From Candidatus Woesearchaeota archaeon (lineage in GTDB: Archaea > Nanobdellota > Nanobdellia > Woesearchaeales > UBA11576): a stretch of 54,602 bases of DNA. Below, piece after piece: positions 18,740 through 32,693 of this stretch. The DNA lies in the NCBI GenBank assembly GCA_013203345.1, contig JABMQF010000011.1, positions 1 to 54,602 of the forward strand, in the 5' to 3' direction. A model generated the notes under the pieces. That model had not been told where the DNA came from and did no database searches. It was given only the letters and a program-made list of their open reading frames with translations. The position numbers were made by a program, and so were the translations under genes. Each line of letters opens with the position of its first letter. The first letter of the stretch is position 1.

Positions 18740-18989
18740 GAAAATGAATCTGCTTACGCACAGAGGCACCATGCGCAAGCAGTCCAAATCAACCCCCCAA
18801 AAAGATTATTATGTGAAAACCCAATGAAAATGATCCCTGCACACGAGGCGTCATGCGCAAGGTCGTCAAACCCCCAAAAAAGATTATTATGTGAAAACCC
18901 AATGAAAATGATTGCCTGCGCACGAGGCGTCATACGCAAGCAAACCAAAACCCCCCAAAAGATTATAATTGTGGAAACCCAGTTGAGTG
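18740..18989. repeat. tandem repeat, about 78-79 nt unit x about 3.1
   Basis: GATTATTATGTGAAAACCCAATGAAAATGAT starts at 18804 and 18882, with a degenerate copy at 18961. Each unit also carries CTGC.CACGAGGCGTCAT.CGCAAG and a C-run + A-run. Confidence 0.85.
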
Positions 18990-19327
18990 TTTTAGTTAAC
19001 TTCTCATTTAACCTAACAGAACTAGGTAGGTGTAACTTATATATAAAGATTCCGTTTTTTCCCCTATTTCCTAAATTGCCGTTACTCGATATAAACCATT
19101 AGAGCCCTTATAACACCAATTTAACTAAAAAAAATACAACAAAAAACATATTGCCATTTATAAACTGAAACGAGTTCGAGTATACGAATTTCGATACTAT
19201 TTCCGTTCTTGCTGATAAAGAATCAAGAAAAAAACCTCTACCAAGTAATTAGAAATTACTGTAAATCATCAATAATTAACAGAATAGAACCTTATGCAGA
19301 TCACTAATTATCAAACATTCAACTCAA

Positions 19328-26009: not shown

Positions 26010-26819
26010 TCAATTCAATTGTTTTCGTTTTGGTAAATAATTCTTATCAGAAACAACGATTTTTCCAATATTTTTCTCCAAGTCTTTTCTTGCTCTTCCT
26101 GCTACATTCCCTCCCTTGTTTGCTGAATCCTTACATTCAACAAAGCCCTGCGCGTCTTCCTGTTTTGTGATGTCTGTGGTGGCTTTTTCTCCAAACATTG
26201 TCAAGATAAGCTCCCAGTCAGTCATATGATCTCTCAAGTTCTGATTTCTGAGCTTCTTGAATTCCTTATATTCTCCAATTGTCTTTCCGAAGGTTGCTTT
26301 AGATATCTCATTAGTGAGAATTCCGAACTCTTTAGCAGTCTGCACATTCCTTTGCTTCCATTCATCTGTAAGATCCTGTCTAATAGCTATTCCACGAATC
26401 CGTTTATCTATCCATTCCTTGGGATACCCTTTCAGTTCATAGTATTGCTTGATTCTATCTTGTCCTAATTCAGGATTTTCAATCTCTACAATCCTCTCAT
26501 AACCTACTTGAGCAAGCCATTTCTTGAATGGTTCAGCTTTCTTTGAATGAATTGACTGGATTATCCGGAAGAGTGACTTGGTATTGGCACAGTCTGTCAA
26601 ATAAGACTTCCCATCTGATGAAGGCAACTTAAGTTGTACCCAAATTGGGGACAACTCAAGAGAGTTAAATTCACGATTCTTCACCTTACCCCAATATTGT
26701 CTCGGTGTAGGACTATCTGTCAGAACCTCAACAACATCAACAACAGAGAAATACCATTCATCATCGTGCCAGGTACGTCTGATATTCTTGTCCTGAAAGA
26801 CAACTAATCTATTTTCCAT
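26010..26819 (-). CDS. Bro-N domain / DinD-like (DNA-damage-inducible protein D family) protein
   Basis: I set the start at MENRLVVFQDKNIRRTWHDDEWYFSVVDVVEVL (Bro-N-like). The downstream ...KKWLAQVGYERI.EIENPE...RIKQYYELKGY...IRGIAIRQDLTDEW region resembles DinD-type proteins. The track ORF's extra 40 codons overlap the neighbouring gene. Confidence 0.75.
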   Translation of the reverse strand: MENRLVVFQDKNIRRTWHDDEWYFSVVDVVEVLTDSPTPRQYWGKVKNREFNSLELSPIWVQLKLPSSDGKSYLTDCANTKSLFRIIQSIHSKKAEPFKKWLAQVGYERIVEIENPELGQDRIKQYYELKGYPKEWIDKRIRGIAIRQDLTDEWKQRNVQTAKEFGILTNEISKATFGKTIGEYKEFKKLRNQNLRDHMTDWELILTMFGEKATTDITKQEDAQGFVECKDSANKGGNVAGRARKDLEKNIGKIVVSDKNYLPKRKQLN

Positions 26820-26995
26820 GAAAATATGTAAGGAATTGTCATTTATATAACCTGTGTCAATAAGTCCAGTGGATGTGAAAATTTCCGGAAGTTTCACACA
26901 CCTTGTCAAGGAGGGCCTGGCAAGCCTACAAAGATTCATTTCATGACTATTGGGGAGATGTCAACCAACTCGAAAGAGACCTATTCGCAATATAC

Positions 26996-29501: not shown

Positions 29502-31970
29502 ATGATTCTACATTCAATACGTATGAGGAACATCAGAAGCTATACTGATGAGAAACTGGTTTTCCCTGAAGGTTCTATACTTCTTGCAGGCGATATAGGC
29601 AGTGGGAAGTCTTCAATACTCCATTCTATAGAGTTTGCATTGTTTGGTGCGAGAAGGGATTCTATATCTGGCGATGCTCTTTTAAGAAAAGGTAAAGATG
29701 ATGGTGAAGTCGAGCTTAATTTTCAGGTAGAAGGTAAAGATGTTGTAATTCTACGGAAGCTTAAGCGTCGTCGCGATTCTGTGGCACAGGAAGCTGGTTT
29801 CATAATTATTGACAACAAAAAGTTAGAATGTACTCCAACAGAACTTAAGGCAAGAATATTGAACCTCCTTGGCTATCCTAAGGAGATGCTGACAAAGTCA
29901 AAGTCATTAGTCTATAGATATACAGTATACACTCCTCAAGAAGAGATGAAACACATTCTGCTTGAAGGGCATGAGCAACGCGTCGACACATTAAGAAAGG
30001 TTTTTGGTATTGACCGTTATAAGCGCGTAGCTGAAAACTCAGGATTCTATGCGCGTTCGCTAAAAGAGCGCAGAAAAGTTTTGGCAGGGGTTGCACAAGG
30101 TCTTGATGAGAAGATTACTGAGTTGAAGTCAAGACAGGTTGTATTGGATGCTGCAAAGCAACGCGTACAAGATCTTACACCAAAACTCGAATACGTAAGG
30201 TCTGTGAAAAAAGAAAAGTTATCTGAGCTTGATGTGATTGAGACAGAACGTTCACAGCTTGAAGATTCAAAAAAGAAATCTGGCATACTTGAGGCGCGGC
30301 TTATGGAGATTGTTAAGCAGCGTAGCAGAAACAATTCTGAGATGGAAGAGATTAACGCAGGTATAAAACATCTTAATGACAAGCTGGAATCTGTTGATGA
30401 AAAAGAATACCCTCTTTCAGATGCGATTGAAAAGAATATTGTTAGTAAGGAAAATGAGCTGGCAGATCTGAATGCAAAGATGAGTGCGCTTGCAGAAAGA
30501 GCTAAGCAGATTGACTCTCGCATTGCGCAAATGAATAAGGATATAGAGATAAAATCGTCAAGGGTATCTGCAGCAGAAGATAAACGTAAAGCGGTTGGTC
30601 TTATCATGGCTGAACTTTCTATTAAAGATAACGTGTCATCTGAGCTTGAGTCAATAGGAAAAAATCTGGCAGAAATATCAACATCAATAACTAAAAACTC
30701 GACTTCATTGAACTCATCAAATAATCTTAAGGCAGAGATATCAGGGCTTGATGAATGTCCTACTTGCAGACAGAAAGTAGATGCAGTTCACAAGAGCTCT
30801 ATAATTGATACTGAAGATAGGAAAATTGCAAAGCTTGTTTCAGAGATTGGATCACTTGAAAAAGATAAAGCAAGTACACAATCAAAAGTCAATGATTTGT
30901 CAGAGAAACTAAAGCAGCTTGTGATTAAAGAAAATGGACTTGCTGTTCTTAAGGTAGAACTTAACAACATTTATTCTGTTGAAAAGGAACTCAAAGAGAC
31001 AAGGCGTCTTTGTGAAGAATACACAACAGAAAGAAAAAGAATATCCAATGATTCTGCAGATAACACCCACAGCGAAAAACTTTCTATTGATATCAGAAAA
31101 GGAAAGGATTTACTCAAAGAGATAAGAAGATATGAGATACTTTTAAGTGAAAAAAAGCATAACCTGGAACTTGTTGCTGAAAAACAGAAGAGAAAAGATG
31201 AGCTTACATCTCTTCAGGACAGTTTGCGCCAGGAAGTTGGACTGATAAATAATGAGAAGCGTTTGCTAAGTGAGAAGATGTTAGGACTGTCTTCTGTTGC
31301 TGAACGGTTTGCGCTTGGCAAAGAGGTTTTTGAGCGCATCTTGTCTGAAGAAAAGGAATTAGAAGTTGAGATTGGAAAGGCAGGCAAGGAGGCAGAAGCT
31401 CTTGCAAGCATTGTGAGTTCTATTGAAAAGGATGTCAAGTCAAAAGAGGATGCTCTAAGAGAGCACGGCAGACTAGGTATTCTGCTTGAATGGATAGAGA
31501 AAATTTTCATGCGTTTGATGGGTGTTATGGAACGTCAGGTGCTTGCCAGGGTTCATGGACAGTTCAGCGAACTTTTTTCGTCATGGTTTAGAATTATGAT
31601 AGAAGATGAGGTAATTTCTGTACGGCTTGATGATTCTTTCTATCCTGTTGTTTCTCAGAATGGACATGAGACAAATCTTGAATCGCTCAGTGGTGGTGAG
31701 AAGACATCTATTGCTCTTGCGTACAGGCTTGCGCTTAATAGAGTAATAAATGACATGATAAGCAGTATCCGAACAAGGAGCCTTCTGATACTTGATGAGC
31801 CTACTGATGGTTTCTCTTCTGATCAGCTTGATCGCGTACGAAATGTTCTTGATGAGCTTAACACAAGACAGACAATAATTGTGAGTCATGAATCCAAGAT
31901 AGAAAGCTTTGTAGACCACATAATTCACATAAACAAAGATGAACACATAAGCAGAGTTATAAGAAATTGA
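29502..31970 (+). CDS. rad50: Rad50-type SMC-like DNA double-strand-break repair ATPase
   Basis: Walker A GDIGSGKSS, long coiled coil, zinc hook CPTC (LDECPTCRQKV), signature LSGGEKTSIALAYRLAL, Walker B LLILDEPTDG, and H-loop IIVSHE. Confidence 0.92.
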   Translation: MILHSIRMRNIRSYTDEKLVFPEGSILLAGDIGSGKSSILHSIEFALFGARRDSISGDALLRKGKDDGEVELNFQVEGKDVVILRKLKRRRDSVAQEAGFIIIDNKKLECTPTELKARILNLLGYPKEMLTKSKSLVYRYTVYTPQEEMKHILLEGHEQRVDTLRKVFGIDRYKRVAENSGFYARSLKERRKVLAGVAQGLDEKITELKSRQVVLDAAKQRVQDLTPKLEYVRSVKKEKLSELDVIETERSQLEDSKKKSGILEARLMEIVKQRSRNNSEMEEINAGIKHLNDKLESVDEKEYPLSDAIEKNIVSKENELADLNAKMSALAERAKQIDSRIAQMNKDIEIKSSRVSAAEDKRKAVGLIMAELSIKDNVSSELESIGKNLAEISTSITKNSTSLNSSNNLKAEISGLDECPTCRQKVDAVHKSSIIDTEDRKIAKLVSEIGSLEKDKASTQSKVNDLSEKLKQLVIKENGLAVLKVELNNIYSVEKELKETRRLCEEYTTERKRISNDSADNTHSEKLSIDIRKGKDLLKEIRRYEILLSEKKHNLELVAEKQKRKDELTSLQDSLRQEVGLINNEKRLLSEKMLGLSSVAERFALGKEVFERILSEEKELEVEIGKAGKEAEALASIVSSIEKDVKSKEDALREHGRLGILLEWIEKIFMRLMGVMERQVLARVHGQFSELFSSWFRIMIEDEVISVRLDDSFYPVVSQNGHETNLESLSGGEKTSIALAYRLALNRVINDMISSIRTRSLLILDEPTDGFSSDQLDRVRNVLDELNTRQTIIVSHESKIESFVDHIIHINKDEHISRVIRN

Positions 31971-31983
31971 TAAATCAACAAGC

Positions 31984-32253
31984 AAGTCAATACTAATTCT
32001 ACCACAAACCACAACAACAACACAGCACACAACACAAACCACAACCACTCACACCCTGCCAATACCCGCACAACCAACAATTACAGCAACACCCCTGCCT
32101 GTGCTACTGCTGCCACCTAGCGAGCCTAAACCTCTAACTTAAAAAAACCTAACGCAGTTGGGCGAACACATCAAAAACCACAGCAGTGCGAGCGTGGCAG
32201 CAGTTATTGCACAGGCAGGGAAAAACTGCTAAGTCAGAAAATCTGAAGAATCC
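31984..32253 (-). repeat. GC-rich dispersed element, copy B (inverted relative to copy A)
   Basis: The reverse complement aligns with 7402-7678. Its arms CCCTGCCTGTGC...ACTGCTGCCAC and GTGGCAGCAGT...GCACAGGCAGGG pair with each other and differ from copy A by compensatory changes. A CA-rich tail lies at 31999-32056. Confidence 0.85.
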
Positions 32254-32306
32254 ATGCCAGAAAAACTAAAAAATTCAACTTCCCAACTTCTTTACAGTAT
32301 TCTTGT

Positions 32307-32693
32307 TTGATTGATTTTGTCGAAAGGTTTAAATATGCAATTACGCAAGAACCGTTTATAGAGGTGCTATTCTTGAAACGCCCACAAAAAAAACCAACAA
32401 TAATCAAAATTCCTGAAACACCCCATCCACATGAGGTGCCGTATCATAAACTTACAAATCTTAGTAGGAAATACATTAATTGGAAAAAAATAATGATAGC
32501 AGTCATATTCATACTTCTTGTTTTCATGGTTCTGAACGTAATTGTCTCAAGTCCATTCATAACAGGTTACGCTGTTTCAGGTGATAACAGCCTTAATCAG
32601 GAAAGGTTCATGGGCACTGCTTCACTTCTTGCAGTCATATTTGCATTCTTCACACTGTTCATACTTATTGTGAACAAAAAGGTGAAGAGGTAA
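32307..32693 (+). CDS. hypothetical membrane protein (start uncertain)
   Basis: The ORF is TTG-initiated and the first in-frame ATG lies only at the TM region (MIAVIFILLVF). It has two TM segments. Confidence 0.4.
   Translation: MIDFVERFKYAITQEPFIEVLFLKRPQKKPTIIKIPETPHPHEVPYHKLTNLSRKYINWKKIMIAVIFILLVFMVLNVIVSSPFITGYAVSGDNSLNQERFMGTASLLAVIFAFFTLFILIVNKKVKR

Follow-up and report, generated by a model that had tools for sequence, protein, structure and literature searches.

Prokaryotic MITEs, among them the archaeal SM1–SM4 elements of Sulfolobus, are small, non-coding, multicopy and intergenic sequences with end repeats, a target duplication of fixed length and no transposase of their own. The enterobacterial ERIC/IRU repeats and the SMAG repeats of Stenotrophomonas are intergenic imperfect palindromes of ~100–130 nt that have compensatory stems and form RNA stems in read-through transcripts. 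The BOX elements of Streptococcus pneumoniae and the BIMEs of E. coli are built as modular mosaics, with variable internal tandem units, optional modules and strong secondary structure. The Correia elements of Neisseria are MITEs whose end repeats can carry promoter-like sequences and which form RNA hairpins in transcripts. The REP/REPIN sequences, which are mobilized by RAYT, are hairpins with co-evolving arms.

Here we analyzed a window of 54,602 nt, which is the whole stretch of a Woesearchaeota contig presented above, in which a reading made from the sequence alone had noted two copies of a GC-rich palindrome with mirrored substitutions in its arms. The palindrome is not a stand-alone structured-RNA gene. 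It is probably the inner hairpin module of a non-coding MITE, the ends of which were not seen in the sequence-only reading, and we think it likely that its fold is selected as a single strand, most likely as RNA. The MITE is a new family of a known kind, with a covarying internal hairpin that is conserved in one genus. A published census placed a Woesearchaeal genome among the most MITE-dense of the archaea (PMC11602168).

The element is likewise small, non-coding, multicopy and intergenic, with end repeats, a fixed duplication and no transposase of its own. It differs from other prokaryotic MITEs in that conservation is greatest not at its ends but in an internal hairpin, which is interrupted and has invariant boxes, in that many copies without recognizable ends keep the hairpin, and in that no parent insertion sequence was identified. 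The ERIC/IRU and SMAG repeats are bacterial, have different sequences and have effects shown at the RNA level, whereas the hairpin described here, which is known from sequence, lies within a larger element that has its own ends. The variable 31–33-nt C/A-rich units and the A-rich units recall BOX elements and BIMEs, but the modules are unrelated, and in the present element the 8-bp duplications and 16-bp end repeats are clear. Correia elements form their hairpin from the end repeats and duplicate TA, while the element described here has an internal hairpin and a duplication of 8 bp. The likeness to REP/REPIN sequences lies in the co-evolving arms and in the inverted doublets seen in one congeneric genome; in contrast to them, RAYT/Y1 is absent from most carriers, and end repeats and a duplication are present. 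Membership of the REP/REPIN-RAYT elements or of the IS200/IS605-derived palindromic elements was rejected because Y1 does not accompany the repeats and because of the end repeats and 8-bp duplication. Integron attC sites were rejected because the copies are dispersed in both orientations and not in same-orientation arrays.

Anatomy of the hairpin and its copies in the window

Copy B, at 31984–32253, is flanked by a Rad50-type ATPase gene (29502–31970), whose stop codon precedes it, and by a small membrane-protein gene (32307–32693), and its sequence is as it had been described. Those coordinates hold for the sequence and not for the extent of the element, which appears to run on to ~32300. The quoted arms are exact: read on the minus strand, CCCTGCCTGTGC...ACTGCTGCCAC pairs with GTGGCAGCAGT...GCACAGGCAGGG, and in copy A (7433–7558, plus strand) GCTGCCTGCGC...ACCATTGCCGC pairs with GCGGCAACGGT...GCGCAGGCAGC. 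Alignment of the two copies confirmed the mirrored differences on which the sequence-only reading was built (CTGCG/CTGTG with CGCAG/CACAG, and GCCGC/GCCAC with GCGGC/GTGGC), and added two more (GCTG/CCTG with CAGC/CAGG, and ACC.TT/ACTGCT with AA.GGT/AGCAGT). Both copies fold as a single long interrupted stem. The fold of copy B has an energy of −56 to −61 kcal/mol, and none of 200 shuffled sequences was as stable on either strand. In copy B the C/A-rich sequence is on the plus strand, in copy A on the minus strand. The features of the copies in the window are as follows.

31984–31993, plus strand: remnant of the left terminal inverted repeat of copy B, AAGTCAATAC, 11 nt past the Rad50 stop codon
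32000–32092, plus strand: C/A-rich tract of copy B, made of decayed 31–33-nt units of a direct-repeat family, each with the outer 5′ arm motif (CTGCC)
32093–32104, plus strand: outer stem 5′ arm of copy B, CCCTGCCTGTGC, which pairs with 32209–32220 (alignment columns 6–17 with 126–137)
32106–32116, plus strand: inner stem 5′ arm of copy B, ACTGCTGCCAC, which pairs with 32194–32204
32117–32125, plus strand: 3-nt bulge CUA and then box 1, GCGAGC, of copy B, near-invariant in the 56 own-genome and 59 cross-species copies
32126–32187, plus strand: type I core of copy B, with the small hairpin CCTAAC-GCA-GTTGGG at 32148–32162 (from the 56-copy alignment)
32188–32193, plus strand: box 2, GCGAGC, of copy B, which opposes box 1 as G-C, C-G, G·A, A·G, G-C, C-G
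32194–32204, plus strand: inner stem 3′ arm of copy B, GTGGCAGCAGT (from the fold and covariation counts)
32209–32220, plus strand: outer stem 3′ arm of copy B, GCACAGGCAGGG (from the fold and covariation counts)
32227–32237, plus strand: internal TGCTAAGTCAG motif of copy B, which resembles the terminal repeat core TAAGTCA and lies directly past the hairpin in most copies
32285–32300, plus strand: possible decayed right end of copy B, AACTTCTTTACAGTAT compared with TGACTTATTACATAC, a weak match by eye (~10 of 15, with one indel)
7427–7562, minus strand: hairpin module of copy A (covariance model match of 142.6 bits; fold z-score of −5.5 on this strand)
7670–7687, minus strand: left terminal inverted repeat of copy A, GTATGTAATAAGTCAACA, 15 of 15 against the consensus of its first 15 nt
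7243–7426, minus strand: downstream module of copy A, with a TATA-like box (7343–7366) and the GCCUUCGG hairpin (7325–7332), from the module alignment
54575–54602, plus strand: outer and inner 5′ arms of copy C (GCTGCCTGCGC, ACCGTTGCCGC), ended by the end of the window

The left-end remnant of copy B matches the inner part of the family left end, GTATGTAATAAGTCAATAC, and its outer 9 nt have diverged. The possible right end lies just upstream of the TATA box of the next gene, GGTTTAAATA. The GC skew of the C/A-rich tract of copy B is approximately −0.5. In the downstream module of copy A, homology between copies reaches 130 nt, and the arms of copy C are preceded by three 33-nt C/A-rich units at 54495–54593.

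On the C/A-rich strand the hairpin, which is the best-conserved part of the element, begins with an outer stem of 11–12 bp and, past a small internal loop, an 11-bp inner stem; then come the CUA bulge, box 1, a core of 60–70 nt, box 2 and the returning arms. GCGAGC is repeated in direct and not in inverted orientation, and both boxes are essentially invariant in every species. The pairs between them (33–109, 34–108, 37–105 and 38–104) are 99.5% paired around an invariant central GA/GA. Between identical boxes the core is a mosaic of at least four unrelated types. The common type has the small hairpin CCUAAC-GCA-GUUGGG and a 3′ half, CGCAGUUGGGC, that is kept in most species; CGCAGTTGGGC in the type I core is also retained by most species of the genus. 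In the other genomes the outer stem is often absent, or is unrelated in sequence and still pairs.

By inspection of the alignment and the RNAalifold structure, the boxes form a plain 2×2 G·A loop with a bulge nearby. A kink-turn of the L7Ae-binding type was rejected, as two G-C pairs lie between the CUA bulge and the G·A pairs and the opposite strand has GAGC before the stem; bulge-helix-bulge and hammerhead motifs did not fit on inspection. Rfam gave no matches in the window at gathering thresholds, and permissive searching of 31900–32400 gave matches at chance level only (E above 1). Scans of the window for tRNA and tmRNA found none. Coding, whether of a Gly/Cys-rich peptide on the G/T strand or of a Thr/Pro-rich tail on the C/A strand, was rejected on the basis of the 31-nt units, core indels of 1–2 nt and inconsistent frames; the frames on the C/A strand are open only because that strand lacks T. 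A 5′ leader of a gene family was also rejected, as the M-L-M-x-G-K-L-R-K starts downstream are short and inconsistent and the flanking genes are unrelated.

A second mini-repeat of ~45 nt, TTTAAGCTTTGCTTGAAACCCTGTCAAATCTTTGATTTGGCAATG, which has two small hairpins, was observed inside the 3′ inner arm of five hairpin copies (C105:11383-11560, C33:7878-8060, and on contigs C99, C38 and C12), where it is flanked by repeated GGYAATGG. It also occurs as an optional module past the UUCG hairpin on contigs C128, C29 and C101, once in tandem.

Covariation of the arms

The structure was modelled as 27 pairs on the C/A-rich strand, and pairs were counted on three alignments comprising 56 copies from the same genome, 30 from ten other genomes and 59 from public records (~145 in total). 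Within the genome, 92.3% of cells were paired, compared with 87.4% after shuffling, and double changes were found at 9 of the 27 pairs and in 96 cells, where 33 were expected. The corresponding values for the ten other genomes were 91.4% and 71%, with 24 of the 27 pairs and 143 cells double-changed, and those for the public records were 94.2% and 75%, with 25 of the 27 pairs and 224 cells double-changed. None of 500 shuffles reached the own-genome values for paired cells, changed cells or covariation score; the coarser measures in that set were not significant, with 251 of 500 shuffles for the number of pairs double-changed and 57 of 500 for further pair types. In both cross-species sets, the alignments of which were fitted to the model, a procedure that favors the structure, no shuffle of 500 reached the observed value on any of the five measures, two of which are rarely inflated by relatedness alone. 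As a control, the 3′ partner was slid by 1–3 columns, and pairing fell to 20–49% in all three sets.

The sequence-only reading had named arm changes that are not mirrored in additional copies as the result that would speak against it. The mirroring held in the 56, 30 and 59 copies, and covariation is strongly supported in more than 140 copies, with shuffles beaten across species and, on all but the two coarser measures, within the genome. Its proposal that a stem of more than 20 bp around a core of ~60 nt is kept by selection is borne out by the 27 modelled pairs, and its argument that two independent decaying repeats would not behave in this way is upheld by the excess of double-changed cells in the genome and by the results across species.

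In the inner stem, 93.5% of cells are paired in the genome and 95–96% across species, where 10–11 of its 11 pairs are double-changed. Without a supplied structure, RNAalifold recovered the inner stem and the box pairs, with 11 of 14 pairs compensated. There are 40 distinct inner-arm haplotypes in the genome, 33 of which have at most one unpaired position, and one copy has a private double transversion, CCTC/GAGG.

It could be argued that mirrored arms require no selection on a fold, if the arms were kept alike by templated repair or gene conversion, or if the same protein bound both arms as duplex DNA. Many of the mirrored changes are common to whole subfamilies, which means fewer independent events than cells counted, and the occurrence of one arm haplotype with different cores indicates exchange between copies. 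However, passive homogenization is unlikely because the 3-nt bulge, the internal loop and the GA/GA are conserved asymmetries that copying from arm to arm would erase. The GCGAGC boxes, being direct and not inverted, offer no symmetric double-strand site, and the outer arms of other species are unrelated in sequence yet pair. A spacer of 60–70 nt also makes arm-to-arm templating in duplex DNA unlikely. We consider an origin of the mirroring without a fold to be very improbable; the hairpin would instead be kept by selection on the single-stranded C/A-rich fold.

Changes that are private to single copies are about half as dense in the stems as in the flanks, and 13 of the 18 private stem changes break pairs. 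As private changes mostly break pairs, much of the selection is probably on which copies propagate, and the constraint seems to fall mostly on propagating lineages and to be weak at most on resident copies. If the hairpin is the inner module of a MITE, part of what appears as selection may likewise act on copy propagation and not on each resident copy.

Ends, modules and spread of the element

Complete elements are 312–454 bp long and have 16-bp terminal inverted repeats, GTATGTAATAAGTCAR at the left and its reverse complement at the right. The end motif is almost confined to the neighborhood of hairpins. Many copies have lost one or both ends: among the 61 full-length copies, ~18 have a recognizable left end, ~12 a right end and 4–5 have both. 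Perfect 8-bp target-site duplications were found at offset 0 around two elements, C72 (ATTATATC, 332 bp) and C134 (AGAAAATC, 398 bp), and a copy in a congeneric genome has a duplication, TTCTTTGA, that is likewise 8 bp, perfect and at offset 0. In this genome the duplication was found in only two of the ~4–5 complete end pairs, and two other pairs show none. We assign the element to the MITEs because it is short and non-coding, has 16-bp terminal inverted repeats and a duplication of fixed length (8 bp), and is present in many dispersed, intergenic copies. The non-coding nature is apparent from core indels of 1–2 nt, repeat units of 31 nt and the lack of a shared reading frame.

Homology between copies extends past the hairpin for up to ~120 nt in one direction and up to ~340 nt in the opposite one. 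On the C/A strand, the hairpin is preceded by 0 to ~4 C/A-rich units of 31–33 nt per copy, each of which repeats the outer 5′ arm motif GCUGCCUGC, so that the 3′ outer arm could pair in several registers. Units with this motif were seen in the window at 54495–54593 and 32041–32073, and on another contig at C15:13300-13445. The downstream part comprises TGCTAAGTCAG, tandem A-rich units, a TATA-like box and a C(UUCG)G mini-hairpin, together with ~60 nt of conserved sequence that form the right-end block. There is usually no TATA box before the element when the upstream gene is co-directional, which argues that the element has no promoter of its own at that end.

A BLAST search of the 1.69-Mb assembly gave 43 matches at first, and iterated nhmmer gave 84, of which 61 were full length. 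Many copies lie at contig ends, as the assembly breaks at them, and read depth over the core in the source metagenomes was ~35 times that of the flanks. The copies are dispersed over intergenic DNA at approximately one per 20 kb, and all four orientations with respect to neighboring genes are represented. A covariance model made from 56 copies found 3–53 copies in 9 of 11 same-genus genomes, and outside the genus it matched 2 of 49 genomes of the family and order, one a weak match in the same family and the other in another family. Overall, copy number within the genus ranges from 0 to 54. The hosts found by an exact-pattern scan of public genomes are labelled as Candidatus Woesearchaeota or “Nanoarchaeota” MAGs. 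One record, CAZLYC01 (loci L091–L131), is labelled “uncultured Methanosarcinales archaeon” and is a congeneric Woesearchaeota genome with 53 copies; another, DASPMU01 (L113/L123), is a MAG labelled Alphaproteobacteria that has two contigs with the element at 44% GC. Both records are probably mislabelled or mis-binned.

No transposase with the MITE ends was found among the multicopy reading frames of the genome. The 8-bp duplication points to an enzyme of DDE type that acts on duplex DNA, and a cut-and-paste transposase of this type may have been supplied in trans. No empty-site variant was found in the contigs of four metagenomes, as the contigs break at the repeat. The same end motif bounds other small elements with different interiors in other families of the order. 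In a genome from another family of the order (G176), the end motif followed by an identical 40 nt was observed at four contig ends (C42, C55, C69 and C80). These contigs may represent an unassembled multicopy element, and a candidate autonomous relative; a metagenome scan for the interior of that element found nothing.

In other species of the genus the hairpins are compact (~95–135 nt) and mostly without recognizable ends, so that the hairpin may predate the MITE and be merely carried by it. Among the small membrane-protein gene of the window and its homologous loci (L070, L068, L064 and L067), an element is found just upstream in four species of the genus and none in a fifth, although orientation and gene order differ. 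This is a hint that elements may stay at one site for a long time and not move freely. Relative to Rad50, the membrane-protein gene of this genome is oriented differently from its homologues.

These observations bear on a second explanation, namely that the hairpin is a functional multicopy non-coding RNA or cis-acting RNA module to which a protein binds at the bulge and at the platform of tandem G·A pairs, and which is selected by the host in place, with the MITE ends as a secondary vehicle. The compact hairpins without ends and the shared gene neighborhood are as it would predict, as is the lower density of private variants in the stems. Moreover, the boxes and CGCAGUUGGGC are retained across species in which Rad50 is only ~45–50% identical, and the UUCG tetraloop, like the tandem G·A, is a motif typical of RNA. 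However, such a module would not be expected to range from 0 to 54 copies within one genus or to have its cores swapped among at least four unrelated types, and the target duplications show real transposition. The copies have no orientation bias relative to their neighbors, and those after a co-directional gene have no promoter of their own. General positional conservation across species is not above chance (4 same-end matches compared with ~2 expected). The pair-breaking private changes and the absence of an Rfam family match also count against it, and we regard host selection in place as unlikely. The preferred reading remains a hairpin that forms the inner module of a MITE.

The folding strand and possible roles

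The sequence-only reading left the medium as RNA, cruciform or hairpin DNA. That choice can be narrowed only by reasoning. A spacer of 60–70 nt makes extrusion of a cruciform from double-stranded DNA improbable, and so the fold should form in a single strand. The hairpin is probably selected in that state.

Single-stranded DNA would be one such medium, with the hairpin recognized by an enzyme of HUH/Y1 type, as in REP/REPIN-RAYT or IS200/IS605-TnpA systems, or folded on the lagging strand for mobilization. Covarying arms that tolerate G·T are typical of REPINs, the adjacent inverted hairpins in one congeneric genome are like REP doublets, and fragments of IS200-type TnpA are present in this genome. 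Tandem G·A is stable in DNA also. However, the Y1 transposase (PF01797) is present in only 2 of 12 genus genomes and is absent from genomes with 24–53 copies, and the IS200 ends here carry a different hairpin. Single-strand transposition of the HUH type is not known to produce terminal inverted repeats together with an 8-bp duplication. The C(UUCG)G loop is special in RNA and not in DNA. Selection of the fold as single-stranded DNA is thus very unlikely in our estimation. As single-stranded DNA would need an HUH-type enzyme, which is unsupported here, RNA is the most likely medium. The sequencing runs found to contain this sequence, which come from a freshwater site, were all of DNA.

The IS200-type TnpA is the only multicopy transposase in the genome; its ends are unrelated to those of the MITE and it is absent from most element-bearing genomes. 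Fragments of this IS200/IS605-type (Y1) TnpA were observed at contig ends (C34:5-286, C43:9-230 and C33:33526-33663) with an end hairpin, CGACCTAAAGGTCG, that has no relation to the MITE. One of these fragments is adjacent to GGCTCGCTACCGCTCGCC, which resembles both hairpin boxes joined without arms or core.

The RNA would most likely be that of the C/A-rich strand, and the identity of the strand is less certain than its single-stranded state. The tandem G·A speaks for the C/A strand, as its counterpart on the opposite strand would be U·C. The fold z-score was better on that strand in 53 of 56 copies, and C(UUCG)G hairpins occur on it only, in 11 of 54 copies compared with ~0.7 expected. In this genome G·U cells are also more numerous on the C/A strand (77 compared with 25 on the other); this bias is gone across species (32 compared with 26) and is reversed among private changes (2 compared with 7). 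As a proof of the RNA strand the G·U bias was thus rejected, since it holds in this genome only.

We propose that the fold most likely forms in RNA when transcription of neighboring genes reads through the element. The RNA stem may then stabilize or insulate transcripts or bind a protein, as in the bacterial ERIC, BOX, Correia and SMAG repeats. Alternatively, the hairpin could be the leftover of a structure that blocked read-through in a parent insertion sequence. A more specific proposal is that the stem, the CUA bulge, the tandem G·A of GCGAGC/GCGAGC and the CGCAGUUGGGC loop form a protein-binding RNA module, conserved across the genus, that the MITE has spread into dozens of transcription units, where it would insulate, stabilize or process read-through transcripts. 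This is speculative, and we give it a low probability. If it were true, a mobile element would be building a common post-transcriptional signal into the reduced genome of a DPANN archaeon.

The ~145 aligned copies from more than 10 genomes constitute a well-populated example of genuine covariation in an uncultivated DPANN archaeon. With the ends, 8-bp duplication and modules of the element defined, annotators can mask ~1.5% of these genomes, which avoids false gene calls on the stop-free C/A-rich strand. If the hairpin functions in RNA, archaea would have in this element a counterpart to the bacterial ERIC, BOX and Correia repeats, and it might offer a way into the gene regulation of organisms beyond the reach of culture; if the hairpin is needed for propagation only, the element would be an ordinary selfish repeat.

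During our studies on the window we noted a further repeat and a multicopy protein family. At 18791–18991 there are three tandem units with a period of ~79 nt, each with a GC-rich piece, CCTGCRCACGAGGCGTCATRCGCAAG, and an A-rich piece, which have no match in Rfam. The reading frame at 26010–26939 (minus strand) has five paralogues on other contigs, and together these six members are the only sizeable multicopy protein family of the genome, which may resemble phage domains of the BRO-N/KilA-N type.
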